Shown here in pieces: positions 4,046-18,997 of a stretch of DNA of 64,000 bases (the first letter of the stretch is position 1; the number at the start of each line of letters is the position of its first letter). The notes under the pieces were generated by a model. That model saw nothing but the letters and a program-made list of their open reading frames with translations, had not been told where the DNA came from and made no database searches. The position numbers and the translations under genes were made by a program. The DNA lies in IMG/VR virus record IMGVR_UViG_3300029288_000054, positions 32,001 through 96,000 of that record. The stretch is one strand, 5' to 3'. This DNA is from a virus. Lineage: Duplodnaviria > Heunggongvirae > Uroviricota > Caudoviricetes.

Positions 4046-4054
4046 CAAAAATAT
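4046..4054 (+). promoter_or_regulatory. CAAANWTA putative late promoter element
   Basis: CAAAAATAT ends 3 nt before the ATG at 4058. One of 14 oriented copies (see findings). Confidence 0.55.
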
Positions 4055-4057
4055 CTT

Positions 4058-6544
4058 ATGATCGATAAGCCCCGCAACGTTCAAAACGCTGCCGATGTAG
4101 ACAAAGATGAAACGGATGACATCAATGTTATGGGTCATCCGGAGCGAATCGTCAAACAACCCGGCAAGCCGGTCAAGAGGGTCCTTAACGAGCTTGATCC
4201 AGAGTGCCGCGATGATATTGAGGCACCAATTCGATTACAGGAGCTAGCAATGGCACAATCACGTCTATCCGAAGCTGTCCAAGACTACAAGGGAGTCAAA
4301 GGCGACTTCATGACCAGTATGGGTGGTAAGACCGATAAGCTCGGTGGAAAACAAAAGAATACCGGTGCCGGTATCGAGAAGTTTGGCGAAAGCACTTCTG
4401 GTGAAGCTGCCGATGGCATCACTACCAAGCTCAAAGATCTCAACCTAAAGACCAAGCAGAAGAATACGGGTGGGACATTCGAGACGCAGAACATTTCTGC
4501 CGGTAGTGCCGACGACGGCATCACGACTGCTATCAAGACGATGGGTGCTGAGCTTGGCCAGAACTCGATGCAGAAGAATAAGGGTGGTCAATTCGAGCCT
4601 CTGAAGGGCAGCCGGGACACGATGGGCAACAGCGTGGCCGAGGAATGGTCGCTTGATAATATCGCTACTATCATGGAAGGCGATAGCATCAACCTCCAGG
4701 ACCTATTTGACTCCTTCAGCAAGAATTCATCTTACGTCTGTCTGGAAGACTTCCAGCAGCTCTGCAATGCCCACGGCGTTCAAACCATTCTTTCTGAGCA
4801 GAACTTGAAAGCCCTTATGGCCGCTAGCCGCAAGTTCATGTTCTACGAAGGGAATGATGCCAGTGGTAGATTCTGGCAGCCACGTCCGCTATCCGAGATG
4901 GTCGGCACTGGTGCTGTCGCTGCTGCTCCAGTAGCCGAAGAAGACGAAGTGCCTCCAGAAGTGGTCGATGAACCAGTTCCCGAAGTCGCTGAAGTCCCCG
5001 AGATTCCGGGTGGAGAAGGCGAAATCGAAGCCGGTATGGAAGTCGAAGAGCAACCGGACGATCTGGCTGATGTGTTCCAGCAAATCGGCGTCGATTTCGA
5101 GAGAGCCGCCAACATGATGGCTGGGCACGACGAGTCAGCCGAGACACCGGAAGACGAGGCTGCCGAAGGCGACCGCCCTTTTGACGAGATCGAAGGCGGT
5201 GAAGAGGAAACGGCTGAATGCACCGAGGAGGTCTGTGAAGAGGCCCCTGGCGAGGAAGTCGGTGATTCGGCTGAATCCGGTGGTCTGATCAACAAGATTG
5301 CTTCTGGCGTCAAAGGCAAAGCGGCTTCTGTCGCTATGAAGGGTCGTGAAGAGGACGAGCAGAACGCTGTCGACCCATCGAAGGAAGTTGTGAAGATGAA
5401 GGTCGAATCTCGTAAGTGTGCCAAATGCGGCACGACCTTGGACGAAAGCGGCTGCGTCATGTGCGATTTCTTGCGTGAGAGCAGCGACATCGGCGAAATG
5501 AATGGCGAAGACGCCAAGGCCGATAAGAATGGCCATTATACGTCTGACAAGACGAAGAAGGGCCAAGGCGAACTCGGCAAAAAGGTTCCTCCACAAGAGA
5601 CATGCGAAAGCACGTCTGGTGCGGCATCTGACGGCATAACAAGCGAAATCCCCGGCAAGCAGACTCCGCTGAAGCCCAAGATGAAGAATACGGGCGGGCA
5701 AGCTGCTTTCAAGGGTGGCTCCGGGACGATGAAGGAGAATATTCTCCGTCTGTCGCACGTAGTCAAGGAAGCCATCACCCGTGGTGCTAGAAAGATCGGA
5801 AGGGCTGGCAAGTATACGGTTCGATTCGGTGTGACAGCCGAAGGATCAAAGGCCATTTTCCCGACGCTCACCGATGCACTGGCTGTTGTCGAAGAATTGC
5901 TGCAGGTGTGCGACAACAAGGCTGTTGTACTTGAAGCCCTGTACTCCATTCCTCATCAGAAGGAAGTTATCCACCGGCATCGCCTGCCGCTTACCAGAAT
6001 TAAGCGGCGTGATCCAATTGCCTGTGAAGGCAAGATTTTGTTCAAGACCGGCAAGGTTGCGAACGCCTTCGCAGACCGAGTTGTTTCAGAGGGTGTTGCC
6101 TGTCGCGTGAAGAACCATAATTGGGGTGCTGCTGTGGTTGGCACCTTCAGCTGGCCAATCGCGCAGCGAGCTTTCCAAACGATGTCTGAAGCCTGGGGAA
6201 CCCAAATTCACACGCCAGAGCGAGAAGCATTCCATCGTGGTTATGAGGACCAATGGGGTGACAACATCGGTGGTGAAGTTGAACCAGGGCTTGACGATGA
6301 GCCAGAATACAGTGCTGGTGCACCCGGCAACATCGATCCAGAAGGTAATATGTGCCCGAATTGTGGATCGGTTGAAGCGCCAGACGAGCACGGCATATGC
6401 TACGGCTGCGGCGAGCGAAGAGCTGCAGCAGAGCCAGAACTCGAACTCGGCGCACGACCAGACGAAAATCTCGCCGGATCGGACGATTACCTTGATTTCG
6501 ACCAAGGCTTTCAGCCACGGAGACCGATGCCGCGACGGGTGTGA
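4058..6544 (+). CDS. Acidic low-complexity putative internal head/scaffold-like protein with zinc ribbons
   Basis: Glu-rich, with repeated ESTSGxAxDGIT and KxKNTGG motifs. Many (I/L/V)xE-S/G/E sites (IMEG, LSEM, LRES) and two CxxC..CxxC modules. Confidence 0.6.
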   Translation: MIDKPRNVQNAADVDKDETDDINVMGHPERIVKQPGKPVKRVLNELDPECRDDIEAPIRLQELAMAQSRLSEAVQDYKGVKGDFMTSMGGKTDKLGGKQKNTGAGIEKFGESTSGEAADGITTKLKDLNLKTKQKNTGGTFETQNISAGSADDGITTAIKTMGAELGQNSMQKNKGGQFEPLKGSRDTMGNSVAEEWSLDNIATIMEGDSINLQDLFDSFSKNSSYVCLEDFQQLCNAHGVQTILSEQNLKALMAASRKFMFYEGNDASGRFWQPRPLSEMVGTGAVAAAPVAEEDEVPPEVVDEPVPEVAEVPEIPGGEGEIEAGMEVEEQPDDLADVFQQIGVDFERAANMMAGHDESAETPEDEAAEGDRPFDEIEGGEEETAECTEEVCEEAPGEEVGDSAESGGLINKIASGVKGKAASVAMKGREEDEQNAVDPSKEVVKMKVESRKCAKCGTTLDESGCVMCDFLRESSDIGEMNGEDAKADKNGHYTSDKTKKGQGELGKKVPPQETCESTSGAASDGITSEIPGKQTPLKPKMKNTGGQAAFKGGSGTMKENILRLSHVVKEAITRGARKIGRAGKYTVRFGVTAEGSKAIFPTLTDALAVVEELLQVCDNKAVVLEALYSIPHQKEVIHRHRLPLTRIKRRDPIACEGKILFKTGKVANAFADRVVSEGVACRVKNHNWGAAVVGTFSWPIAQRAFQTMSEAWGTQIHTPEREAFHRGYEDQWGDNIGGEVEPGLDDEPEYSAGAPGNIDPEGNMCPNCGSVEAPDEHGICYGCGERRAAAEPELELGARPDENLAGSDDYLDFDQGFQPRRPMPRRV

Positions 6545-6555
6545 TTTCGACCTCT

Positions 6556-6608
6556 CGACAAAGGCGACAGATAGCGGCTGACGCACCGCATGACTGTCGC
6601 CTTTGTCG
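6556..6608. other. Perfect 15-bp inverted repeat (long hairpin)
   Basis: CGACAAAGGCGACAG (6556-6570) pairs with CTGTCGCCTTTGTCG (6594-6608), with an inner GCGG/CCGC stem and no U-tract. Confidence 0.8.
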
Positions 6609-6625
6609 TATCTGGTAGATATATT

Positions 6626-6916
6626 ATGCGTACTATTAGGATTCCTATCATCGAAAGCAAGCAAAGCAATCAAGCTAAATTGTTTCGTAAGTTGCCACCA
6701 GTTGCGAAGGAATTATTCGTAGTTATAGCTAAGTTATCGCAATCGAAAGGAACCATAGCGATCGATGATATCAGAAATCTGAATATGTTCGGAGCCACAC
6801 GAGATATCGAGAATCTTCTGTACACCTTGGAATCGCGTGGCTTTGGCGAAGTTACGATAAATGGTGCTGAGACTCACTTCATACCTAATAAGATATTGGT
6901 ACAATCAGTTCTATGA
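6626..6916 (+). CDS. Small possible winged-helix protein
   Basis: Start reassigned to MRTIRIPIIESK because the tracked start lies inside the hairpin. IDDIRNL..DIENLLYTLESRGFGEV has a wHTH-like pattern. Confidence 0.55.
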   Translation: MRTIRIPIIESKQSNQAKLFRKLPPVAKELFVVIAKLSQSKGTIAIDDIRNLNMFGATRDIENLLYTLESRGFGEVTINGAETHFIPNKILVQSVL

Positions 6917-8112
6917 AATTATTAGCAGAGAAAAGTCTCAGAGATACTGGCAGTCGCCGTCTTGGTAAGCATAAATATCCCAGGTCGTCGTTCAAGTATC
7001 TATCATATAATACCGACCCCAAGCCTGACATTCTCGTCCTTGGAGATTGGAAACATCCGAGAACTAAGAATAATTTAGTTGCCGGAATAAACTTGAATTA
7101 TTTATCTAGCGGCCAGCTAGAAAAACTCCGTAAGGTAGCTGATAAAGTTTTCCGAAGAGATTCGTTACGTTCAAGATATAGATTCCTAAAGTCAGTGTTA
7201 CCAGATGTCGCGATGTACTATCGGACGTATGATTCCAAGTACATCAAGAGTATAGAACGTAGCGCACTCGATTCATATGTCAAGGCTAAGCCGACATCGA
7301 GGGACGAGAAAGCACAGACGACATCGGATACTGGAAGAGCAGCACATGTTAAAGAACCAGAAAAGGATATAGACCAACGCTCTGACGAGCTAGATCGTGA
7401 GACGTGGCAGACGAAGCGAAGGCTTTACGAGCCGGAAAAACAGAGACGCAGAACATCACCGGAACGCATCGGTATCGCTGGCAGCGAGCTAGCGAAGAAA
7501 GCCAAGGATGCAAGATATAAGCGTGATAGACGGAAACTTAAGGAATTAGAACGTCAGTTAGCTATAGATAGAGAACTACGCAGGCAGGCTGAATTATCCA
7601 GGAAACCAGAAGAGCCGGAGGAGCCAGAAGCACCGGAAGATAGACGTCGACGCAGAACTGGTGATTATGGCCCTGAATACCATCTAGATGATTTGGGATA
7701 TGAATCCTATATCAGAAGCCATAAGCCTGGCTCCAAGTTAATCACAGAGGCGAAGCATAAGAGTTTGTTCGCTGTTTTCGACGTGCTATCAGAGCAATTT
7801 GTTGTTGATTCTGTTATAAACCACGCAGAAATGCTCTTCGATGCCGGATGGGACTACGATCATACTGTATTATTCGAAGTAACTGATAATGAATTAATTG
7901 TCAGATCAGATTGTTCCGATACCGCCATGAAGCGTGCTATTGAGTGTTTCAAAAATAGCACTGTAAAAAATATATTGCTTGAATCTAGGTTTAAAGATCC
8001 AAGCTACGATCCAGAACATCCAGAAGAGTGCTGCCCGCACTGCGGAGCCAGACTAGAACGCGGTGATGATGGTATCTGTAATCGTTGTGGGAAGCCTTGG
8101 CCTGAAGAGTAA
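6913..8112 (+). CDS. T4 gp2-like DNA end protector domain fused to a charged region and a C-terminal zinc ribbon
   Basis: DPKPDILVL...GINLNYL...YRTY resembles gp2-family (D)xxPLV..GLNLHYL..KRY. C-terminal CPHCG-x8-ICNRCG. Confidence 0.5.
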   Translation: MKLLAEKSLRDTGSRRLGKHKYPRSSFKYLSYNTDPKPDILVLGDWKHPRTKNNLVAGINLNYLSSGQLEKLRKVADKVFRRDSLRSRYRFLKSVLPDVAMYYRTYDSKYIKSIERSALDSYVKAKPTSRDEKAQTTSDTGRAAHVKEPEKDIDQRSDELDRETWQTKRRLYEPEKQRRRTSPERIGIAGSELAKKAKDARYKRDRRKLKELERQLAIDRELRRQAELSRKPEEPEEPEAPEDRRRRRTGDYGPEYHLDDLGYESYIRSHKPGSKLITEAKHKSLFAVFDVLSEQFVVDSVINHAEMLFDAGWDYDHTVLFEVTDNELIVRSDCSDTAMKRAIECFKNSTVKNILLESRFKDPSYDPEHPEECCPHCGARLERGDDGICNRCGKPWPEE

Positions 8113-8156
8113 TTATCACCGCCCAAAGATATAAATGACTTTTTGGAGAAACAAGC

Positions 8157-10574
8157 ATGCCACTGACCAAAATACCATTACACACATCGTTGGTTGATAA
8201 GCAGTGGATTCAGGTTAGCGGGCCTGATGACATTATCAGCGGATTTGCCTATGACGCTGAGACCAGATCTTTGTGGGGTCGTGACAGTCAAATCAGCCAA
8301 ATTGGTATTCACGGTACCAGCCATATATCATCTGACCCCATTCCAACCGCAACTTGCGATACTATGGGGTTGATGGCGGCAGACGATAAGTGTAAGCTCG
8401 ACGCACTTACACAGATGAGACTTGGTATCGTCGGCTTCCAGGGTGCTGGCTTTCCTGACGATGGTGGTTGGTTACAGGGCGACGTTATACTTGCGGCTGG
8501 TAGCGAGTTTGTCTCTATCGAGCGATTCGGTAACGTCATTAGATGGACGGTTGATTCACCTATTCCGCTGAGTTGCAATGTGGAGACATGTGCATCGATA
8601 TTCTGGGTCCAAGATGAAACAGAGGTTGCATCTATTCGCCCGCCCTCTTGTGCTGGTAAGCTACCTGGGACGAGCTCGTACGGCGAGATGAAGGTCTATC
8701 TGCTCCCGGAATCGATGATTATCGATCCAGCAGATCCGGCCACCTCACTCAATAAGAAGACGAACTATCCGTCGTTGATTTTCAAGCGATACGACGACTC
8801 TGTAGCCCCTGGAGTTGCTGAATTCGAGATGGTGTTGAAGCGAACTGCTTCGAATAACACCCAAACGAATGTCGGCTGGGCTTTCACGCCTGGTGCCGGT
8901 GCTACTCCTGAATGTGTGTGGTTCATGGGTAGCAATAGTAATGGCGATCAAGTTCGCTTCGACTTGAATATGGAATCAGCCCCCGGTATTCTTGGTGGGT
9001 TACTCTATAACGGCAACTTGCTAACGAAGCGTTCAGCGGTCATCACCGACTACACAACACAAATCCTGGCCACTAATCAGTACGTCTGCAAATGGTGGGA
9101 TGTTCATGGGGCTACGGTCGCAGATAATGCGTCGTTTATAGCAACGAACGTATGGCAATATAGCTATCCAGAAGGCGGCATCAATAGCAAACAACTGATT
9201 CTCGATAAGACAATCGGCATTCTGCCAATCGGAACCATTGTTGATATGTGGTTCTTCCAGGTCGGATCTGTTAATGATGTGCCGATTCGGCAATACGTCT
9301 TCAACTGCAAACCGACTCTCGATGCGCAGAATGTCTGGTCAGAGGTTGGTGGTGTCGAATTCGGCACACAACTTACAGCGAGAACTGAACCAGCGACACC
9401 GACAGCCACATTCGACTACGAGTTAGTCAATGACGTCCGTAATCTTGAGCACAAGATTTGGGGTATGACCGGTATTGATCCGCCATATCTGCTCACCGAG
9501 GTTACTGGTGGGACTGGCGGATCACAGATCATGATTTTCGATGTCAACGACCAGTATATCGCACATATCGATACGTCATTGCCGGGCCTGCGGGTTGATA
9601 GACAATCAACGACAGAAACATACCGGCAACGACCTGTTTGTTTGTGGAATAGACATATCGGTTCCTCAAGCCTTGTGAATATTCATCTTGGCAGGCCGAA
9701 TGAAACCGGTGTCTATCCGCCGTATGACATTCTTCTTAACGCACCAATCGACAGTAACGAAGAATACTTCCTGAACGTTGTCGAGACAGGTCCGTTAGCG
9801 AACGATACTGGTTATTATGCTCTATTCCGTGGTGCTACGTTCGAGGACTTACCACAGAGCGGATATATTCGGCTTCTGACTGGTTTGAATGCCGGAACCA
9901 CTTGGAGATACGACTACAAGGCTATATGTTCGCTGCATGCCGAGGATGTTGTAGCTCTGATAGGATCGACACCATTCACTGGTCTGATTACCGAGGTTGC
10001 ACAGGTTTTACATCAGGAATATAATAGCCCCTGTGTCAGATTAAATTTCACATTGACAGCCGCGAACAAGGTTGAGTTATACTTCAAAGTTGGTACGCTC
10101 GACATGGGCAGGGACTACGAAGATGACACTATCAGTGTCGCCGACGACTTTGTGCGAGGTCTTGCACCTGGATATGCTGTGAGCGGCACCTATATCCAAG
10201 ATGCACCTTACAACGGCAGCGGAGCAGCACCAGGAGTTAATGTACCTGGCTTCATCGTCTATGATGGTGGCTACGGCTTGTCTCCAAGTACCACAGGAAA
10301 TGTGGAATATTGGAACGAATTAGAAATTATGCAACGTGGTAGTCAAGTCTGGATATGGTGGAATGGATTGCTTATTCCGCCTAGTACGGATGCTAGCGGG
10401 ATTCTTCCGACACCAGTAGCAGTCTCTACCCCATACTTCCCAATCATCCGTGAGACTCCAATGGGCAAGTTTGGTATGAGAATGTTCCCTGGATGCAAAC
10501 TACGCCGTATCGTAGTGCGTGGATATGATCGAGCATTCTCCGAATATGTTCATGGCCAGTTAGAACTAGCATAG
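8157..10574 (+). CDS. Putative virion structural (tail/baseplate-associated) protein
   Basis: GLMAADDKCKLD matches the GLMSxxDKxKLD tail-fibre motif. Beta-rich. Preceded by CAAAGATAT and a GGAG ribosome-binding site. Confidence 0.6.
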   Translation: MPLTKIPLHTSLVDKQWIQVSGPDDIISGFAYDAETRSLWGRDSQISQIGIHGTSHISSDPIPTATCDTMGLMAADDKCKLDALTQMRLGIVGFQGAGFPDDGGWLQGDVILAAGSEFVSIERFGNVIRWTVDSPIPLSCNVETCASIFWVQDETEVASIRPPSCAGKLPGTSSYGEMKVYLLPESMIIDPADPATSLNKKTNYPSLIFKRYDDSVAPGVAEFEMVLKRTASNNTQTNVGWAFTPGAGATPECVWFMGSNSNGDQVRFDLNMESAPGILGGLLYNGNLLTKRSAVITDYTTQILATNQYVCKWWDVHGATVADNASFIATNVWQYSYPEGGINSKQLILDKTIGILPIGTIVDMWFFQVGSVNDVPIRQYVFNCKPTLDAQNVWSEVGGVEFGTQLTARTEPATPTATFDYELVNDVRNLEHKIWGMTGIDPPYLLTEVTGGTGGSQIMIFDVNDQYIAHIDTSLPGLRVDRQSTTETYRQRPVCLWNRHIGSSSLVNIHLGRPNETGVYPPYDILLNAPIDSNEEYFLNVVETGPLANDTGYYALFRGATFEDLPQSGYIRLLTGLNAGTTWRYDYKAICSLHAEDVVALIGSTPFTGLITEVAQVLHQEYNSPCVRLNFTLTAANKVELYFKVGTLDMGRDYEDDTISVADDFVRGLAPGYAVSGTYIQDAPYNGSGAAPGVNVPGFIVYDGGYGLSPSTTGNVEYWNELEIMQRGSQVWIWWNGLLIPPSTDASGILPTPVAVSTPYFPIIRETPMGKFGMRMFPGCKLRRIVVRGYDRAFSEYVHGQLELA

Positions 10575-10592
10575 ACGCCGTGGCCTTTGGAA

Positions 10593-10632
10593 GCCTTCTT
10601 TGAGGTCTTCTTTTTCGGACCTCCCAGAAGGC
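10593..10632. terminator. Stem-loop between convergent genes, possible bidirectional terminator
   Basis: GCCTTCT/AGAAGGC and GAGGTC/GACCTC stems. Confidence 0.5.
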
Positions 10633-10682
10633 ACAGAGACAGCAAACGTGCAAAAGAAGTAGCAGAGAAGAGCTTGGGCGGT

Positions 10683-10979
10683 CTATTTCTTGTTTTTACA
10701 TCGCTGCTGATTCGCTAATAAGATGGCTTCCGTTTCCATCATTTCCCTTTCAATCTTGTCGAATCGCGTTTTGGCTTCTTTGAATATCTGATGCAGGTTC
10801 TTATCGCCAATAGGTATTATCTTCGGTATCGCCGTGCCTCCGACTGTACAATTTACAGCGACTCTGGCTAGTCGATCAGCTTCCTCCTGATCTTCCGCGA
10901 CACCACCGAAGAAAACGCCCTCGATGTATATCCCTATTTCTTTATCATCGATTGCCTTACCATATATCACTACTAGCAT
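10683..10979 (-). CDS. Hypothetical protein
   Basis: 98-aa ORF with a GAGGA ribosome-binding site. Confidence 0.7.
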   Translation of the reverse strand: MLVVIYGKAIDDKEIGIYIEGVFFGGVAEDQEEADRLARVAVNCTVGGTAIPKIIPIGDKNLHQIFKEAKTRFDKIEREMMETEAILLANQQRCKNKK

Positions 10980-11021
10980 TTACGTTCCTCGCCAAAGTTA
11001 ACTGCCTTGCTCACCCTGTAG

Positions 11022-11513
11022 TCACCTACCAGACGAACCGAAACCAGCTTCTCCTCTTTGATTGTATTCAGTGCTGAATTCATCTACTTCAATAAACGCA
11101 GCACTGTACGTCTTGTGTAAGATGATTTGCGCAATCCTGTCGAATTTCTTGACATGATATTCGACATCCGAAATATTCATCAAACGAACAAACAACAAGC
11201 CTGTGTATGTCGCGTCAATTATGCCGTGGAATGGCGCAACACCAGCGATCCACATGCTTGATCGTCCTTCGACGGTGTAATAATATCCCTTAGGACAAGC
11301 AACGATTATTCCCGTCCTGATATTCTCGGTACTATGTGGCTTGATCGTTACGTCTTCAATCGAGAAGATGTCGTAGCCAGCATCCGTCTCGCGTTTGCGG
11401 TATGGGACTCGTGCTTCTGGATCGACGAGCTTATATTCAAGACGTACGTAATCGATAGGCCATTGACGTAATATTGCTTTGTCGGCGAGAGGAAATACCA
11501 GCGTTGGATTCAT
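11022..11513 (-). CDS. dut: dUTP diphosphatase (trimeric dUTPase)
   Basis: All five motifs present: AGYDI, GRSS, GIIDATYTG, DRIAQ, RGEAGFGSSG. Confidence 0.95.
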   Translation of the reverse strand: MNPTLVFPLADKAILRQWPIDYVRLEYKLVDPEARVPYRKRETDAGYDIFSIEDVTIKPHSTENIRTGIIVACPKGYYYTVEGRSSMWIAGVAPFHGIIDATYTGLLFVRLMNISDVEYHVKKFDRIAQIILHKTYSAAFIEVDEFSTEYNQRGEAGFGSSGR

Positions 11514-11529
11514 TTGTATTTCAGCTTGT

Positions 11530-11895
11530 ATGGATGATATAAATGATTTTGATGTTTCTCAACTGCGATGGTGGCGATGTGTCGCTGCTGATACTGAGGA
11601 TAAAATACAGACCTTCACTGCAGAGATCGACCCGGATCGCGTCTACGCAGAATTCAATAAAATACGACGAGATTTGCAGCAGAAGGGCTGGTGTTTTATC
11701 GAAGCCAAGCCAATCCCAGAAGAAGAGCTTCTAGCAGCAGCAAAATTGTCGAGATTCAAGGCACGCAAACGTGAGCAACTGCGTGGCCTTACTGGGCGGC
11801 ATTACTCTCCGATTTCTCTTTGGCGAGTCGCACTATTTGCTGTGCTATTTGCTTTGCTAGTTCTATGGCTGGCGTATCACCATTTAAGTACTTGA
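11530..11895 (+). CDS. Membrane-anchored protein with a PilC/GspF N-terminal-like segment
   Basis: WRCVAADTEDKIQTFTAE...IRRDLQQKGWCFIEA followed by one C-terminal TM helix. Overlaps the 3' end of tmk on the opposite strand. Confidence 0.5.
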   Translation: MDDINDFDVSQLRWWRCVAADTEDKIQTFTAEIDPDRVYAEFNKIRRDLQQKGWCFIEAKPIPEEELLAAAKLSRFKARKREQLRGLTGRHYSPISLWRVALFAVLFALLVLWLAYHHLST

Positions 11896-12502
11896 TGTGT
11901 TCGAGAGGCACATATCTCGATAGCATCATTAGTGCTTCTGGGCTCAACTTGAGCAGATTATCATACAGGTCGCCGACTCTTTTCAGTAGATCGACGTTGT
12001 GATCATATCTATCAGATTTCGAACGATCAGTCGATTTGTTCATACGCTCGACGATCGTCTCCCATCGATTTGATATGATGAAGACCCTATCTGGTGCAGG
12101 CGATTGCACAAGACCGAGTAATTTGTTAATTGCGGTCAGTTTCAAACCTTCAGACACACCATAGACAATGCAACTGATATAATTCGATCTATCGGCAAGC
12201 ATGACACCGCCTTGCTCAAGGTGCGGTATTAACTGGGTGTTGACGAAACAACTATGGTCCACCATCATCATCATTTGGACCGACATACTATCGATTTCGA
12301 TTGGTGGTCCGCTTGGTGTAGAGAATAGTTCCGGTTGTTTGACGAGCTTACGTAGGTGTTTGCCGAGCGGCGTAGCTCCAGGATGATGAGTGAGAATGCA
12401 ATTTAGCTCTGTGTTTTTCAGTTCCTCAACAACCATATGGGCCAGAGTCGATTTTCCTGAATAATCCATCCCCTCGAATACGATATACAATCCTTGATGC
12501 AT
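11789..12502 (-). CDS. tmk: Thymidylate kinase
   Basis: IVFEGMDYSGKST P-loop, THHPGATPLG, LADR..S..VYG, PD. Confidence 0.9.
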   Translation of the reverse strand: MHQGLYIVFEGMDYSGKSTLAHMVVEELKNTELNCILTHHPGATPLGKHLRKLVKQPELFSTPSGPPIEIDSMSVQMMMMVDHSCFVNTQLIPHLEQGGVMLADRSNYISCIVYGVSEGLKLTAINKLLGLVQSPAPDRVFIISNRWETIVERMNKSTDRSKSDRYDHNVDLLKRVGDLYDNLLKLSPEALMMLSRYVPLEHIKYLNGDTPAIELAKQIAQQIVRLAKEKSESNAAQ

Positions 12503-12554
12503 TTTTCTCTTCTACTTGTATGGTTAGCGGTGCCGTTTCTTTTCCAATACGCGG

Positions 12555-12980
12555 CTAGATCTCAGGATTCTTTACCTTAGGTCTTGGATTCTTGGCGACT
12601 GCGATTACTCGGCGGTCACGCCATTCAGTTTCCAAGAAAATCGCATCACCCCTAGCAACTTTTAGTTTATTAATTAGGACTTGTGATCTAGCTGCACACC
12701 GATATAAGACTTTCAAATATGCCGCCAGTTCTTTTGGCGGCTTCTTACCAGCAAGCTTCTGGATTTGACCAACTAATATCCATAGATCCTTTTGGAGCTG
12801 TTGCGTCTTACAGATGGCGTCACCGCTGGTGACATAGTACATCTCTGGATTGAGTGTAGGTACATTAGATAACCCGAATTCAGCCGGGTCAATATGATCG
12901 AGATGGTCGTATATCTTTATTTCAAAGACAGTGCATGATTCGTCATAATCACCACCAATCGGCACTGGCTCTATATACAT
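12555..12980 (-). CDS. Hypothetical protein
   Basis: 141-aa ORF in operon arrangement. Confidence 0.65.
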   Translation of the reverse strand: MYIEPVPIGGDYDESCTVFEIKIYDHLDHIDPAEFGLSNVPTLNPEMYYVTSGDAICKTQQLQKDLWILVGQIQKLAGKKPPKELAAYLKVLYRCAARSQVLINKLKVARGDAIFLETEWRDRRVIAVAKNPRPKVKNPEI

Positions 12981-12982
12981 AA

Positions 12983-13216
12983 TTACTGTTGTCTCGCTAC
13001 GTATTCTTCTAGATATTCAGGAGTCAGGCCATTGCGTTCCATTAGCGTAGGATGTGCTAGATAGAATTGAGCAGTACACAAGCCCGGATGTACGCGATAG
13101 AACTGACCGTCAAGTAAGACGACCATACAATTTGCAGCATCTTTACCGCATTGAGAACATGCTGTTGGAATAACGTCAGCAACCGGTGCCGGATCAGTTT
13201 TATCATTTATATCCAT
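12983..13216 (-). CDS. Small Cys/His putative metal-binding protein
   Basis: CSQCG...HPGLC, with a GAGGA ribosome-binding site. Confidence 0.6.
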   Translation of the reverse strand: MDINDKTDPAPVADVIPTACSQCGKDAANCMVVLLDGQFYRVHPGLCTAQFYLAHPTLMERNGLTPEYLEEYVARQQ

Positions 13217-13271
13217 ATAATCCTCGCTAGATCGCCAATGTATTATTTACTATTCAGAACTAGACAGAGTA

Positions 13272-14237
13272 TTACCGATTACCCTGTCTAAAGGTTTCGT
13301 TCCGACCGCCACCGCTACCACTTGTTGGTCTGCGCTTGGTCGGAGGCTCGACATTACCGAACATCGCTTCGATATTGGAACCTGTTGCATCTGCTAATTT
13401 TAACGCTGCACCAAGACTAGGAACACGCCCACCTTTCTTATTAGTGGCATGTTTATAGCGACTGATTGTAGATGGATGTACGCCGACTTCATCGGCAACT
13501 TCTTCTTGTGTCTTCCCGGCTCTTTCCAAGGCAGATACAACTTCCGGCACGTTCTTATATTTTGATCTAGCCTTCTGTTCTATCTCTTTGTGCCCATAAC
13601 GTCGTGGCGGAGCACCATCGTCTTCTGTAATAGTCCCCTCGATTTTATTCCAGCAACCAAGCAATTTGCTGGTATGGACTTCAAATGCTTTAGGCGCTTT
13701 GCTGAAGTCTGTTTCTTGGACCGTTATATCGGACGTTGGCACAAGCATCGCCTTTTCGTTGGTGATGCTATACAGGACATACTCGCCTTGTGGAATTCCG
13801 ATGCCTTGTGAGACTAATCTGTTAACATTCAGGACGACGCCTTCCGTCAGATATTGCGAGAACTGATTCTTGTCGTCAAAACGGCAGGGAGATGACGTAA
13901 TGCGCATCATCTCCTCTAGAGCCAACTGTGTGTTGTCGTCATTGAATCTGGCATGAGCCGTGACTGGCTCCAAGGCTCGATTCAATTTCTTTTCTAGAGT
14001 TGTTGATAGCATCGCTTTGTCCTCTCGCATGTGGCCCCAGGATAATTCCTTAGGCAGAGTAGATGTCTTTTTGATACTGTGAATTCCTGGGAGACCGGGC
14101 TCATTCACATCACCAAGACCTGTTGGATCTTTCTTCGGTGTGCGATATTCTGGTTCCCACGGAGTCGCCTTCTTAGACTTACGCTTCTTGCCGTCTGGTT
14201 GTCTTACTAGACTTAGCATACGATAGACCGTCTCCAC
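13272..14237 (-). CDS. Protein with a C-terminal XRE/Cro-type HTH
   Basis: AGKTQEEVADEVGVHPSTISRY...RVPSLGAALKLA. The N-terminal part carries LTEG/ITED sites. Confidence 0.75.
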   Translation of the reverse strand: METVYRMLSLVRQPDGKKRKSKKATPWEPEYRTPKKDPTGLGDVNEPGLPGIHSIKKTSTLPKELSWGHMREDKAMLSTTLEKKLNRALEPVTAHARFNDDNTQLALEEMMRITSSPCRFDDKNQFSQYLTEGVVLNVNRLVSQGIGIPQGEYVLYSITNEKAMLVPTSDITVQETDFSKAPKAFEVHTSKLLGCWNKIEGTITEDDGAPPRRYGHKEIEQKARSKYKNVPEVVSALERAGKTQEEVADEVGVHPSTISRYKHATNKKGGRVPSLGAALKLADATGSNIEAMFGNVEPPTKRRPTSGSGGGRNETFRQGNR

Positions 14238-14282
14238 ATATAATTTTGACCATTGGTTAAAATCGGATTAACAAATATACGT

Positions 14283-14633
14283 ATGGAACTGTGCCTTGTG
14301 ATACCCACAAATTCATTGGAGACGATGATGAATGGAACCATCGACCTTGTAGTAGTTATTCCCGACGTACTCAAGACATCTAATATAATTACTCGTGAAT
14401 TACAGGTGCTAGCAGATGGTGTACCGGTCGCAACGCTTGATGCTTCTGATAAGGGTCAAGTCGAAATTAATAATTTGCAGGTGTATGATAGCACAACTAT
14501 AACTATAGAAATGCGTGGTATCTATGATACTGGTGCGATGTCGGCACCATTGGTCCATGAATTCATTATTCTTGATGGAATTCCAGAGCCTCGATCAGAA
14601 TTATTTAACACCATAATCTTGAAGAGACCATAA
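14283..14633 (+). CDS. Hypothetical (Ig-like beta-sandwich possible)
   Basis: ATG at 14283 directly follows the CAAATATAC motif. Beta-rich. Confidence 0.55.
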
Positions 14634-14634
14634 C

Positions 14635-15048
14635 ATGCGACTAAGTTTACTTACTGAAGGTATAGACGATTTTACTGCTGCTGTAGGTATAGTGCGATGC
14701 CATAACAAATGGCTGTTGGGGCTGTCGAAATCGGAAGACGATAGAGGCGGAAAATGGTGTTTTCCGGGTGGCGGCATCAAGCCAGGTGAGACACCAGAGA
14801 AAGCGGCTGTTAGAGAGACTAGAGAAGAAACTGGCGTAAAATGTCACTATGTCTCTGGTCCTATTAAGGACAAACGCAAGGGTTTCGTCGCTTTTGTACC
14901 TTGCAGCACCAATACTACTGATTTTAAGACACTTAAGCCCAACCACGAATTTGCATCGTTGGGATTCTTCACCATTAAAGAGATGAAGGGCTTGAAGCTA
15001 TACGGCAATGTGCTGGACCTGATAGAAAGAGCTAAACGCCGATACTAG
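14635..15048 (+). CDS. NUDIX hydrolase
   Basis: Nudix box [24 protein letters not shown]-terminus MRLSLLTE-G. Confidence 0.92.
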
Positions 15049-15257
15049 TCCCTTGGCGGGAACCACGGCGGTAGTAAGTAATGCCATAGTTTGACTTTGA
15101 AGTACCCTATATGCAAACTCCAATGCCATAATGATGGTTTGATATAACTAGTCCAAGTACCGTTTAGCTTTCTGCCTTCCGATGAGATTATATCAGTTCT
15201 GAAAGCCTCTTCAGGGATTTTGAGCTTGCCGCAGAATTTTTCTTGGTCAGTACTCAT
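15045..15257 (-). CDS. Hypothetical protein
   Basis: Coupled to the upstream gene by an ATGA overlap. Confidence 0.5.
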
Positions 15258-15481
15258 ATTGGGTCGAAGTCCGTGAAATCCCGTTCTTCTTCATATTCTT
15301 CGTCATCGCCGTTTAGCTTATCAACATAAAAGCTGACGTTTTCGCATGTTTCTTTTGTGACCCCTTCACTACTGCCAAATACCAACGAGAAATCTTCACG
15401 TTGATTATGTGCTATTACTGATACTTCAGCTTCTTGGTTATATTGGCGCAATTGTTCTATTAAGTCTTTGAGCTTTCTCAT
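15254..15481 (-). CDS. Hypothetical protein (common phage MxxxxLIExL..Y family)
   Basis: MRKLKDLIEQLRQYNQEAEV, with an ATGA overlap. Confidence 0.65.
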   Translation of the reverse strand: MRKLKDLIEQLRQYNQEAEVSVIAHNQREDFSLVFGSSEGVTKETCENVSFYVDKLNGDDEEYEEERDFTDFDPI

Positions 15482-16392
15482 AGTATTCTCGATTCCATCG
15501 CTGTTTGATGTAATATGTCTTTATTGATGCCCATTGCTTCGGCTAGGGCATATTCCGTCTGTATAGTGCAATTAAACTGTATTGGGTCGTCTGCACCAAG
15601 AGTAATCTTGCAACCGGACGCCTGCATTTTCTTTGCTGGATGCTTCATCAGCGCTATAGTATGTGTGCAGATATTGCTATGGATGGACATATCGAATACA
15701 ATACCTAGTCGCATAGCTTCTTTCTGCTGGTCCTCTGTGGCATAGATGCCATGGGCTATCCTGTTTATCCCCATCTCATGTATAGCTTTACTTATATTGG
15801 CTGCTGTGCCCGGTCTTTCGCCAACATGAGCACGAATTGTTTTACCTTTTTTCCGCCACGGTTCAAGTGGCTCCATATAATTAGACCAATTAGCGACAGA
15901 CTCATCACCAACAAAGTCGATCCCTACCATGAATCTGTCGAGCGTCTTTATGAGGCCGATAGCCCGCATCTGCAGTTCTATTGGCCAGCCGTAGCTAACA
16001 GATAACAGATAATTGATATCAACACCAATCTCTTGGGCTGCTATGTTGAATATGCTGAAGAAACGATCACCAGCAGCAGACAATTTGCCCGACCTAGCGA
16101 ATTTATTCAGAGATACGGTAAGTGTGGCGTGCTCAATTTGCTCTGCTTTTATATCTGAACAGACTTGATGAGCTACAAGGTTAAGAGCCCAATCATCCCA
16201 CCGGAGCTTATTAAGAATGTCGAACCTAGTGCAGAAATATTCGAAGTCGCCGTCATCACGCATCAGACGTACTTGTTGCTGGACGTCAAAGAGTGAGTCG
16301 GCAACCCCAAATCCATCCGAGTTCCTAATAATCTCCCAAATAGTTTCTGGGCTGATAGAACCTGCTAAGTGACGATGTGACTCTACAAACAT
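15478..16392 (-). CDS. Adenosine/AMP deaminase family protein
   Basis: HRHLAGS, GIDFVGDE, HVGE, RIAHG, ADDP: metal and catalytic residues present. Start reassigned to MFVESH. Confidence 0.88.
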   Translation of the reverse strand: MFVESHRHLAGSISPETIWEIIRNSDGFGVADSLFDVQQQVRLMRDDGDFEYFCTRFDILNKLRWDDWALNLVAHQVCSDIKAEQIEHATLTVSLNKFARSGKLSAAGDRFFSIFNIAAQEIGVDINYLLSVSYGWPIELQMRAIGLIKTLDRFMVGIDFVGDESVANWSNYMEPLEPWRKKGKTIRAHVGERPGTAANISKAIHEMGINRIAHGIYATEDQQKEAMRLGIVFDMSIHSNICTHTIALMKHPAKKMQASGCKITLGADDPIQFNCTIQTEYALAEAMGINKDILHQTAMESRIL

Positions 16393-16504
16393 TATCGATG
16401 TTTTGGCTAAGGTTAGACATTGTATGTAATTATAAGATACTGCCGATAGTTTCACCCATAGCGGCCAAATATAATGGGGTGGCTACCTGCCTATCAGATA
16501 GGAA

Positions 16505-18997
16505 ATGATTATGAATATTTTGGAGCGCATCGATTCCGCATTCAATAAAAAACTTATTAACGAAGCTGGCCCTATGAAAGAAAAGGGCCAGCCTGGTGAG
16601 GTCATTGATATGACTGACCAAACAGCTAGAATGTACGGGCTATCAAATTGCAGAGGTCCGAATATTGGCTGGGATGATTATGCTGCTGGAAGAGATTATC
16701 AACCTCCAATGCACTTCGAGGCTGGGTCGAACGTTGAGATAGGCCCGAAAGACACAGGAAAGGATGGGGTACTGGTCCCCGGTGATTATAATGAGGTAAA
16801 ATTCATCGGACCAAATCCGTACAGCGTCAACCATGGTGGTATTAGGCCGTGGTCGAAGGGCGAAATAATAGCCACTCTTATATATGACGGAGACGATGAA
16901 GAAGGAGAGGGTGGACCGAACGGTTTATTGCGTATGCTTGCCAAACAAAAAGGCAGAATAACAAAAGCCTCAGAGGCAATGGCTGGTAAGGAAGAGCGCG
17001 ACGAAAACGATGTCAGAGATTCTGTGATGCTCGGTGCCATGGCGGTTCTGCAGATGTTACCAAAAGACGAGAATCGACCAGGAACAAGATTTACCGCATT
17101 TGTCGGAAATTGGATTGAGCAGGCCATGTTTGCTGGAACTCCTCCTGGATACTCTGACGAATACAGACGAACCAGGGGACTGAGAAGCAGAGTTGAACCG
17201 GCTGTGAAGAACGCTATATTAGCCGCTCGACAGGGCAAACCGATGGATGAAGCGCTTCGTGATGTGCAGGATAAGTTCGACGAATTATATAGATGTCCAG
17301 CTTGTAAGGGGACCGGGACCATAACGGGCTTGAAGAAGGAACCAGTTCTCGACGCCAGCGGGAACGACACAGGTTTTAAAAAGGTTGTCAAGACAAAGAA
17401 TGGAAAAACTATTCCCGAAAACCAGCCATGCGAAAAATGTGGTGGCAAAGGGACTACTAAGCATATAGAAAAAGGCCCCAATCACCCATTTGGTAAGCTA
17501 TTGCCCAAATTAGAAGAGGTAAGAAATTACGTTATTCGTGCTATAACATCTGGGAGCCCAAAAGCTATCGAGGACGCTTATAAGAAAATGGAGACCAAAT
17601 TTGAAGAGATTAAAGAAGAAGGGGAAATATTTTCATCTGGAGGCATTACTACTACAGGCTCTGTTGGCAAGAAAGCCCGTGAACACGGGGCCTTGAATAC
17701 TTATAAGAGAGCATCGAAACTCTTGAATAAGCAGAGGGAGTTAGCCGAGAAAGCGATTAGAGAACTACAAGAAGGTAATGCCGAAGAGTTGGACAAGCTT
17801 GCAAACGAGGCCGGTAGACAGTGGAAAGCCTTCAAAACACCGAAACATAAAAAATGGATTCCAGACCCCAATATCGCTCCAGAAGATCAAAAAGAGCCAG
17901 TATACGTTTCGCCGTACGAAAAACCACAAAAAGCACTGCGTGGCGTTAGGGGTTCGATAGGGTTGGCAGCTATCACTACAGAGCTAATTAGGGCACTACA
18001 GAGCAAAAACGAAGAACAAATAAGAAAATTCATTACCATGAGCCAAGACGAAGAGCGACTGATTCGCGACAGAGAACAGGTGAAGTTACAATCATCAAAA
18101 GCCACTCAACTTGATGTTGGTGGTGGTGACGATGACGATGAGGAAGAGCGGTCTGATTTTGCCGATGTCGGCCAGGCGACTAGTGCAATCACTCAGAAAT
18201 ACCGCGAAATCATCACCATGGCCATGGCAAGACTATCGCCGTATCGTGACGATTCGCTCGAACGCAAGGAGCGTGCTTCGATAGCGAATAAGACGCTGGA
18301 CGGTATTAAATCTGCTATTGACGTCTACTTGAAAACGAAAGCAGGCGGGCAGGATACGTCCAATGCAGTCATGGCTATCGAGAATTTGCCGAAAAATCTG
18401 AATCCAAGCCTCGGCGACGAATGGAAAGAAGAAATCGCCGAAGTATTGCGCAACCTAAATGGTGCCATCGAAATGGGCGATGGCTTTAAAGAGATCAAAC
18501 GCGACATTGCCGATCTACAGAAGGTAGCGAAAGAAGATACAAGACTCGTTGCACCAGAGGGTTCTCTTACTCCACAAGAATACCGAATAGCGCTTCGATT
18601 GTACGGTATTAGTGATTACCCTGAAAAAGGCACACCACAGGACCCAGAAATCGACGAACAAGGAAGGAAGTCGAAGTGGGCTGAAGCTGGATATCCACTA
18701 GTCGGTCAAAAGCAGATAGGTAAAGAACAGAACGTATATCTATGGACCGACGTTTTTGAAACGACTGATGAAAATGGTGATCCGGTTCCGTCAGTGTCTA
18801 GTGCTCGGATCTCAAAAGTGAGAGGCAGCGCTGAATTCAAGATTGGCGATCTTGCCCGTCAATTGAAGCAGCAAATAGGAGAAGAATTCGGATATGATTC
18901 AGTCGACTACCAAATCATATCCGAATTTTACATATCCTATTGCCGCATGATAGTTGAAGAAGCTGTTCCTGGTAGCTTAAAGCTGATCTACGGCTAA
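16505..18997 (+). CDS. Giant sigma70-family RNA polymerase sigma factor with an inserted DnaJ-type zinc finger
   Basis: Region 2: NGLLRMLAKQ..DSVMLGAMAVL..RPGTRFTAFVGNWIEQAM. Region 3.2: QLDVGGGDDDDEEERSDFAD. Region 4: LTPQEYRIALRLYGI..VSSARISKVRGSAEFKI. Zn finger: CPACKGTG..CEKCGGKG. Confidence 0.72.
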   Translation: MIMNILERIDSAFNKKLINEAGPMKEKGQPGEVIDMTDQTARMYGLSNCRGPNIGWDDYAAGRDYQPPMHFEAGSNVEIGPKDTGKDGVLVPGDYNEVKFIGPNPYSVNHGGIRPWSKGEIIATLIYDGDDEEGEGGPNGLLRMLAKQKGRITKASEAMAGKEERDENDVRDSVMLGAMAVLQMLPKDENRPGTRFTAFVGNWIEQAMFAGTPPGYSDEYRRTRGLRSRVEPAVKNAILAARQGKPMDEALRDVQDKFDELYRCPACKGTGTITGLKKEPVLDASGNDTGFKKVVKTKNGKTIPENQPCEKCGGKGTTKHIEKGPNHPFGKLLPKLEEVRNYVIRAITSGSPKAIEDAYKKMETKFEEIKEEGEIFSSGGITTTGSVGKKAREHGALNTYKRASKLLNKQRELAEKAIRELQEGNAEELDKLANEAGRQWKAFKTPKHKKWIPDPNIAPEDQKEPVYVSPYEKPQKALRGVRGSIGLAAITTELIRALQSKNEEQIRKFITMSQDEERLIRDREQVKLQSSKATQLDVGGGDDDDEEERSDFADVGQATSAITQKYREIITMAMARLSPYRDDSLERKERASIANKTLDGIKSAIDVYLKTKAGGQDTSNAVMAIENLPKNLNPSLGDEWKEEIAEVLRNLNGAIEMGDGFKEIKRDIADLQKVAKEDTRLVAPEGSLTPQEYRIALRLYGISDYPEKGTPQDPEIDEQGRKSKWAEAGYPLVGQKQIGKEQNVYLWTDVFETTDENGDPVPSVSSARISKVRGSAEFKIGDLARQLKQQIGEEFGYDSVDYQIISEFYISYCRMIVEEAVPGSLKLIYG

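Follow-up and report, generated by a model that had tools for sequence, protein, structure and literature searches.

Unrelated proteins of an uncultured T4-like jumbo phage clade share a short N-terminal (I/L)-x-E leader, a candidate capsid-targeting propeptide

In bacteriophage T4, the internal proteins IPI, IPII and IPIII carry short capsid-targeting sequences (CTS) and Alt carries a propeptide, all of which are removed by the prohead protease gp21 (PMC9026906, PMC5694885). The CTS of IPIII consists of the first 10 residues, with residues 4 and 7 acting in targeting and residues 8 and 10 in processing (PMC9026906); Alt loses 6 residues at ITE-6, and processing affects both of its ends (PMC5694885). 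According to a review of T4, proteins with a CTS in relatives of T4 are basic (PMC9026906). In the giant phages phiKZ, 201phi2-1 and SPN3US, many head-internal or ejected proteins are processed, and a protease related to gp21 cuts after the Glu of a three-residue motif (PMC5694885, PMC10052503). Here we describe a leader of 7 to 8 residues, also ending in (I/L)-x-E, that is shared by unrelated proteins of an uncultured T4-like jumbo phage (G000), including a NUDIX hydrolase encoded at positions 14635-15048 of the stretch of DNA analyzed (hereafter the window). The window comprises 64,000 nucleotides (nt), i.e., bases 32001-96000 of the 388,105-base pair (bp) virus record IMGVR_UViG_3300029288_000054 (CheckV completeness 99%). 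Positions are those of the window unless given as genome positions, and arrows mark cuts, which are predicted ones for the phages described here. An initial annotation of positions 4058-18997 (hereafter the span) had proposed that (I/L)xE motifs mark head-packaged cargo throughout that region.

The pattern M-[KR]-L-x-x-[LI]-x-E, with G, A, S or D as the next residue, heads eight unrelated proteins of G000. In addition to the NUDIX hydrolase (genome position 46635, plus strand, i.e., window position 14635; MRLSLLTE↓G), these are proteins with 71 amino acids (aa; genome 21676, minus strand; MKLQKLSE↓D), 84 aa (genome 21459, minus strand; MKLSMLSE↓A), 215 aa, with a Sigma70_r4 domain (genome 178256, plus strand; PF04545, E = 3e-10; MKLNLLAE↓A), 142 aa (genome 227600, plus strand; MRLLLSE↓S), 82 aa (genome 309452, minus strand; MKLELLNE↓G), 286 aa (genome 328597, plus strand; MRLSMLTE↓G) and 43 aa (genome 381442, plus strand; MKLKLLSE↓G). 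A strict form of the pattern, M[KR]Lx[LIM]LxE[GA], was found at four predicted N-termini and at one internal Met, which is likely the true start of a fifth protein, and nowhere else in 122,498 residues. Its expected number was 0.004 based on the internal frequency and 0.0014 based on column shuffles, and its excess over the internal frequency was approx. 1000-fold. Moreover, when all four-position words in N-terminal residues 2 to 10 were enumerated, K2-L3-L6-E8 ranked first with four exact hits, a number that was never reached in 200 shuffles.

Because synonymous codons vary among the copies of the leader (the Leu, Ser, Glu and Gly codons all differ) and the DNA upstream of them is unrelated, selection on the leader acts at the peptide level, as opposed to an element of RNA or DNA or a mobile 5' cassette; the leader as a nucleotide-level element was rejected on the same grounds. 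The predicted mature parts of seven of the eight proteins have an isoelectric point (pI) > 9, as compared to 27% of the proteins genome-wide. A second type of leader was found on three unrelated proteins encoded outside the window, i.e., MRYFDRILSE↓A, MRNFDKLLE↓S and MKCFDKLLQD, the last without the Glu; the genes (genome 326247, 136852 on the minus strand, and 154414) each have a promoter-like CAAANWTA motif located no more than 70 nt upstream.

Two bearers of the main leader type deserve separate mention. The 43-aa protein, MKLKLLSEGHWVKADPTKRMSFLLHPSDREKFIRWGKKKPKRK (genome 381442-381573), is conserved and very basic, with a predicted mature form of 35 residues and a pI of 11.2. Its gene is located directly upstream of an open reading frame (ORF) with a Zn ribbon, a helical ORF with 226 aa and the gp23-type capsid gene. 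Substitutions relative to the G002 orthologue are found mainly at third codon positions, and the 43-aa ORF is a real gene. A longer ORF on the opposite strand (genome 381127-471) overlaps the 43-aa ORF, and simple gene calling would choose the longer one. A search of the region upstream of the capsid gene in 80 relatives recovered the 43-aa peptide only from the closest ones. The 226-aa ORF is scaffold-like by position only; PHROGs gave no scaffold identification for it. The 215-aa Sigma70_r4 protein (genome 178256-178903), which has CAAAGTTA 12 nt before its ATG, is absent from the three close relatives.

A prohead protease of the gp21 family (Peptidase_S77), which the initial annotation had proposed to look for, is encoded at genome 231355-232101 (PF03420, E = 6.9e-21, over the cut-off; phrog_207 in PHROGs, E = 1.4e-43). 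The GEFDHP and GISSRG motifs of this protease are invariant across four relatives. The genome also encodes a major capsid protein of the gp23 type (PF07068, E = 1.3e-78) and a portal of the T4 type. As judged by the protease, the nearest cultured phage is Ralstonia phage RsoM2USA, with an identity of just 30%, and a megablast search of the span against GenBank phages yielded no nucleotide match. Relatives in IMG/VR comprise 154 contigs with capsid proteins that are 72-96% identical, several of them complete at 340-410 kilobases (kb). A complete relative, G003 (364 kb), and the more distant G005 and G006, with proteases that are 52-56% identical over the aligned region, were assembled out of fetched pieces.

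The maturation site of T4 gp23 (FLTE65↓A66) aligns with SLILE↓D in the capsid protein of G000, and the site homologous to T4 LTE65↓A66 reads [IL][LF]E in 80 of 80 relatives; additional LTE, ITE and LYE sites are found in the propeptide of the capsid protein. As all 80 relatives keep [IL][LF]E at this site, these data argue, indirectly, that the protease of the lineage may retain a T4-like (I/L)xE specificity. A predicted complex of the protease with the 43-aa peptide that carries the leader received a score of 0.00, giving no verdict in either direction.

Within the span, the leader is carried by the NUDIX hydrolase (137 aa, plus strand), the naming of which in the initial annotation was borne out by a match to PF00293 (E = 3.2e-17; 63.2 bits as compared to a cut-off of 21.1) and by a readable NUDIX box (G-x5-E-x7-REtrEEtGV). 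Its relatives in the PDB include MutT, Ap4A hydrolase and RppH. As the structure alignments begin at residue 11-15, the eight-codon leader M-R-L-S-L-L-T-E (14635-14658, plus strand) lies ahead of the NUDIX fold, and the predicted cut at E8↓G9 would leave the enzyme with an N-terminus of normal length. The ATG is located 1 nt after the upstream stop codon. Among three close orthologues (78-90% identity), L3, L5, L6, E8 and G9 are invariant, and positions 2, 4 and 7 vary. The gene shares a unit with the ORF upstream of it (14283-14633, plus strand), and this unit is headed by the promoter-like motif CAAATATA (14272-14279, plus strand). In G003 (166763, minus strand), the ORF just upstream of the NUDIX gene is a different one (166 aa), which also carries a leader of this type, MKLRLLTE↓D. 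This difference hints that the position upstream of the NUDIX gene is a small locus with variable cargo.

We also determined the occurrence of the leader in relatives, using a relaxed pattern in which one-residue shifts and D after the Glu were allowed. This pattern was found in 8 genes of G000, 9 of G003, 6 of G005 and 6 of G006, always at the first ATG after a stop codon or at a corrected start and never at an ordinary internal Met. A degenerate DNA version of the pattern yielded 25 hits in five distant complete genomes, as compared to 5 hits for a reversed control. The proteins behind the hits in the distant relatives are unrelated to the bearers in G000; among the bearers in the relatives are a DUF5662 protein, two GNAT acetyltransferases that score above the cut-off of Pfam, and proteins with weak exonuclease and AAA matches. 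As a modular address tag would be expected on a fast-changing accessory set, this turnover of bearers between relatives fits such a tag.

The genes with leaders are associated with the CAAANWTA motif. Among the 93 copies of this motif in the genome, 34 are located no more than 70 nt from a gene start and in the right orientation. CAAANWTA directly heads six of the 11 leader genes (eight with the main leader type and three with the second), as compared to 28 of 507 other genes (P = 1.9e-5; Fisher's exact test), and the genes for the NUDIX hydrolase and those at genome 328597, 21676 and 21459 are located downstream within units headed by the motif. The protease gene and the scaffold-like ORF are headed by CAAANWTA as well. 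In many cases, the motif begins 11-13 nt ahead of the start codon, and a Shine-Dalgarno sequence is not apparent (e.g., at window positions 4046, 14241, 26436 and 55487, the last three on the minus strand, and at many genome sites), and this spacing of 11-13 nt recurs in distant relatives. A distant NUDIX homologue in G005 (305134-305757, minus strand) has CAAAGATA 12 nt before its ATG. If the motif were -10-like, as in T4 late promoters, the mRNAs of CAAANWTA-headed units would be leaderless or nearly so. Overall, the shared leader is non-random, selected as a peptide, modular, clade-wide and linked to a promoter motif.

With moderate confidence, we favor the explanation that the leader family is a T4-style capsid-targeting propeptide. 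As in T4, small and mostly basic proteins as well as enzymes, in a set that changes between phages, would be loaded into the prohead by way of a short N-terminal propeptide, which the gp21-family protease would then remove by cutting after (I/L)-x-E. The commonest propeptide of the clade would be M-[KR]-L-x-x-[LI]-x-E, and the residue next to it G, A, S or D; L3 and L6 (i, i+3) may form the docking face, and L6 and E8 may serve as P3 and P1 for the protease. We thus infer, from sequence, that the leader proteins would be targeted to the capsid, cleaved and ejected. Under this explanation, the NUDIX hydrolase (14635-15048) probably belongs to the head cargo and would enter the cell along with the DNA.

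The similarities to T4 concern both the bearers and the machinery. As with the CTS of IPI, IPII and IPIII and the propeptide of Alt, short leaders are found on unrelated, mostly basic and fast-evolving proteins; these leaders comprise 6-19 residues in T4 and 7-8 residues here and end in (I/L)-x-E in both. Similar to T4, the genome encodes a gp21-family protease, the same motif is found at the maturation site of the capsid protein, and hydrophobic residues at i and i+3 precede the cut. On the other hand, the residue after the cut here is G, A, S or D, the predicted cargo includes enzymes and a regulator (i.e., the NUDIX hydrolase, the Sigma70_r4 protein and, in relatives, GNAT acetyltransferases) and not only small basic proteins, and the leader genes are scattered over the 388-kb genome. 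The T4 leaders read MKTYQEFIAE↓A and, for IPI, MKTFKEF...ITE↓A, and only the three genes outside the window with the second leader type (e.g., MRYFDRILSE↓A) show this T4-CTS architecture. Cleavage after the Glu of a three-residue motif, as proposed here, is shared with phiKZ, 201phi2-1 and SPN3US; these phages, however, use (S/A/G)-x-E and long propeptides (PMC5694885, PMC10052503), whereas the leaders described here are very short and, as in T4, have I or L at P3.

Several observations weigh against a capsid-targeting propeptide. The consensus MKLxxLxE differs from MKTYQEFIAE and shows no sequence resemblance to the T4 CTS. Conservation of the NUDIX leader was observed among close orthologues (78-90% identity), where it is only weakly informative. 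The distant NUDIX homologue in G005 has an N-terminal extension of approx. 90 residues instead of the leader. Finally, because CAAANWTA also heads the unit with the XRE, dTMP kinase and dUTPase genes, the motif is not established as a late promoter, and we did not adopt that designation.

A broader proposal, which we put forward only tentatively, is that the clade of T4-like jumbo phages with genomes of 340-410 kb has its own capsid-address tag, MKLxx(L/I)xE, and packs and injects a fast-changing toolkit. The cargo in this proposal would consist of the MutT/RppH-like NUDIX hydrolase, the Sigma70_r4 protein, GNAT acetyltransferases and tiny basic peptides, so that the first phage proteins to act in the cell would arrive ready-made. 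We know of no published precedent for a virion-delivered sigma-type factor. If the leader is a capsid-address tag, an eight-residue pattern would suffice to read, directly from the sequences of uncultured jumbo phages across a whole clade, which proteins are injected; the cargo would be unusual in including a sigma-type factor and a NUDIX hydrolase, the latter with host nucleotides or RNA caps as potential substrates at the moment of infection; and the tag would represent a natural signal of small size by which foreign proteins could be loaded into large capsids.

The strongest alternative to a capsid-targeting propeptide, which we regard as unlikely, is that the leader is real and serves another purpose, e.g., as a tag recognized by an enzyme that modifies or degrades the protein (a degron, or a leader like those of ribosomally synthesized and post-translationally modified peptides), as a stability or translation-start element of transcripts starting a few bases ahead of the ATG, or as a docking peptide for a partner other than the capsid. 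A role at the start of translation would be consistent with the many bearers that have the motif just 12 nt before the ATG and hence mRNAs that may be near leaderless. Synonymous codons in the leader vary, however, and the leader is missing from the majority of the other genes that have the motif at -12. Moreover, the leader ends in exactly the motif that is kept at the maturation site of the capsid protein, one bearer is encoded among head genes, and no candidate partner enzyme was seen.

A further alternative, put forward in the initial annotation, is that the whole block 4058-18997 is an injected toolkit (a giant sigma factor, an XRE regulator, a gp2-like DNA end protector, a winged helix-turn-helix protein and the NUDIX hydrolase), each component being marked by a leader or by internal (I/L)xE motifs and cut by the protease. 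We consider this improbable. All the strings quoted for it are present in the genes concerned, all five genes providing the examples are in CAAANWTA-headed units (with motifs at 4046, 8124, 14241 on the minus strand, 14272 and 16466), N-terminal sites are conserved in the proteins starting at 6626, 6913 and 16505, and the processing of T4 Alt at both ends offers a precedent (PMC5694885). However, (I/L)xE does not mark cargo across the span, where 49 sites were found and shuffling within proteins gave an expectation of 50.3; the deviation was not significant for any individual protein. For example, the observed and expected numbers of [IL]xE sites were 9 and 8.8 for the protein encoded at 4058, 4 and 5.3 for that at 8157, 3 and 3.0 for the XRE protein, and 13 and 10.5 for the protein at 16505. 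The internal "joints" that had been taken as processing sites (YLTE and TITE in the XRE protein, IME and LRE in the 4058 protein, LITE and ILLE in the 6913 protein, and those in the 16505 protein) thus represent background, as their counts match the shuffled expectation.

Genome-wide analyses gave the same picture. The density of [IL]xE per 100 aa is 0.92 genome-wide, 0.81 as expected from composition and 1.02 in the span, and a site occurs within the first 10 residues of 7.5% of proteins as compared to 7.4% of internal windows, and a general N-terminal enrichment was therefore rejected as a signal. The initial annotation had also suggested a comparison between CAAANWTA-headed and other genes; the density was found to be lower in the headed genes (0.78 vs. 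0.94 per 100 aa). N-terminal [IL]xE sites were found in 6 of 34 motif-headed genes and 33 of 484 other genes (nominal P = 0.03), a count that includes the examples that prompted the idea. Among 297 start-corrected orthologue pairs from G000 and G003, a conserved [IL]xE within the first ten residues was observed in 20 as compared to 11.6 expected (P = 0.016), and one followed by a small residue in 7 as compared to 2.4 expected. This modest excess reflects a subset of genes that includes the leader family, not a general property. As the LxE frequency is at background, the generic motif is refuted by the yardstick of the initial annotation itself, which had named a frequency no higher than background as evidence against it; on its own, LxE is not predictive.

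The examples that had been quoted as leaders were thus of unequal value: that of the NUDIX hydrolase belongs to a real, clade-wide family and those of the 6626 and 6913 proteins possibly represent leaders, whereas an N-terminal leader is lacking in the XRE and 4058 proteins. The 96-aa protein encoded at 6626-6916 (plus strand) had been described from a long ORF starting at 6590. In G003, an in-frame stop codon just upstream of Met13 of this ORF places the gene start at 6626, and the annotated start at 6590 is probably wrong. From the corrected start, the protein begins with MRTIRIPIIE↓S (MRTIRIPIIE↓N in G003), a 10-residue leader with the length of the T4 CTS. The 399-aa protein encoded at 6913-8112 (plus strand) starts with MKLLAE↓K, a 6-residue leader as in T4 Alt (ITE-6), and its orthologues start with MKLIE↓R (G003, 64% identity) and MLLE↓Q (G006, 29% identity). 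In the 830-aa protein encoded at 16505-18997 (plus strand; headed by CAAATATA at 16466), one of the two quoted sites, LINE↓A (residues 17-21), is retained in G003, where it reads IISE↓A, and the other, ILE↓R, is lost, as the G003 counterpart reads IIQR. These three proteins are possible cargo; the evidence for each comes from one or two relatives, and their leaders all depart from the main consensus. As candidates for head cargo, the 6626 and 6913 proteins are weaker than the NUDIX hydrolase.

Three of the functional labels in the initial annotation could not be verified, and searches of PHROGs, Pfam and the PDB with the proteins encoded at 4058, 8157, 16505, 6913 and 6590 yielded nothing usable. 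For the "winged helix-turn-helix" protein (6590/6626), there was no family match. For the "gp2-like" 6913 protein, a tblastn search of the genome with T4 gp2 gave nothing at E ≤ 1, and the two proteins share only a local match of 30 residues (pairwise E = 0.003) that falls short of homology over their length. A tblastn search of 50,697 phage records with the 6913 protein found nothing, the PDB gave an insignificant match (E = 0.78), and the ESM Atlas gave nothing. Residues 35-64 of this protein, DPKPDILVLGDWKHPRTKNNLVAGINLNYL, resemble residues 158-182 of T4 gp2 (13 of 30 identical), and the stretch is kept in the G006 homologue. It may be a shared small motif and not evidence of homology. For the "sigma" protein at 16505, no Sigma70 family was found in Pfam even at E ≤ 10, no match was found in the PDB or, by tblastn, in the phage database, and no similarity was found to the Sigma70_r4 protein encoded in the same genome; the ESM Atlas gave a Sigma70_r2 lead below threshold. 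Motif-like strings visible by eye may reflect a distant sigma kinship, and the 215-aa Sigma70_r4 protein is the better candidate for a packaged sigma factor. Overall, the proposal of an injected toolkit holds for the NUDIX gene and possibly for 6626 and 6913, and not for the block as a whole, as leaderless genes for dUTPase, dTMP kinase and adenosine deaminase are located inside it, the first two in a CAAANWTA-headed unit.

The least probable explanation, and one already disfavored, is that the leaders are functionless, having arisen by coincidence or been left over from common ancestry or from recombination between the 5' ends of genes; it would accommodate the background level of generic LxE and the small size of the family (eight genes per genome), but not readily the approx. 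1000-fold excess of the pattern, its recurrence on different proteins where the capsid protein is only 73-79% identical, the lack of common flanking DNA, or the conservation of the fixed positions while the x positions vary.

With the NUDIX hydrolase as a candidate for capsid targeting, the block as a whole is a mixed region of regulatory and nucleotide-metabolism genes and no cargo island. Its first gene (4058-6544, plus strand) encodes an acidic, low-complexity 828-aa protein with zinc ribbons and without a leader of the shared type; this gene is the first in a unit (4058-8112) headed by CAAAAATA (4046-4053, plus strand), which begins 12 nt before the ATG. It is followed, after the 6626 and 6913 genes, by a gene for a beta-rich 805-aa protein of unknown family, also without a leader (8157-10574, plus strand; headed by CAAAGATA at 8124). 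An adenosine-deaminase-family enzyme (15478-16455, minus strand; PF00962, E = 1.4e-31) is encoded by an ordinary metabolic gene without a leader, in a unit with two small ORFs. The XRE-type helix-turn-helix protein (13272-14237, minus strand) was correctly labeled (PF01381, HTH_3, E = 2e-8; 34.6 bits as compared to a cut-off of 23). Its gene is followed on the minus strand by two small ORFs, the genes for dTMP kinase (11789-12502; PF02223) and dUTPase (11022-11513; PF00692), and a 98-aa ORF, and a CAAANWTA motif is located at 14241-14248 on the same strand. The XRE-type regulator thus apparently heads a single minus-strand unit (13272-10683) with dTMP kinase and dUTPase, representing an unusual pairing of a regulator with nucleotide metabolism under CAAANWTA.

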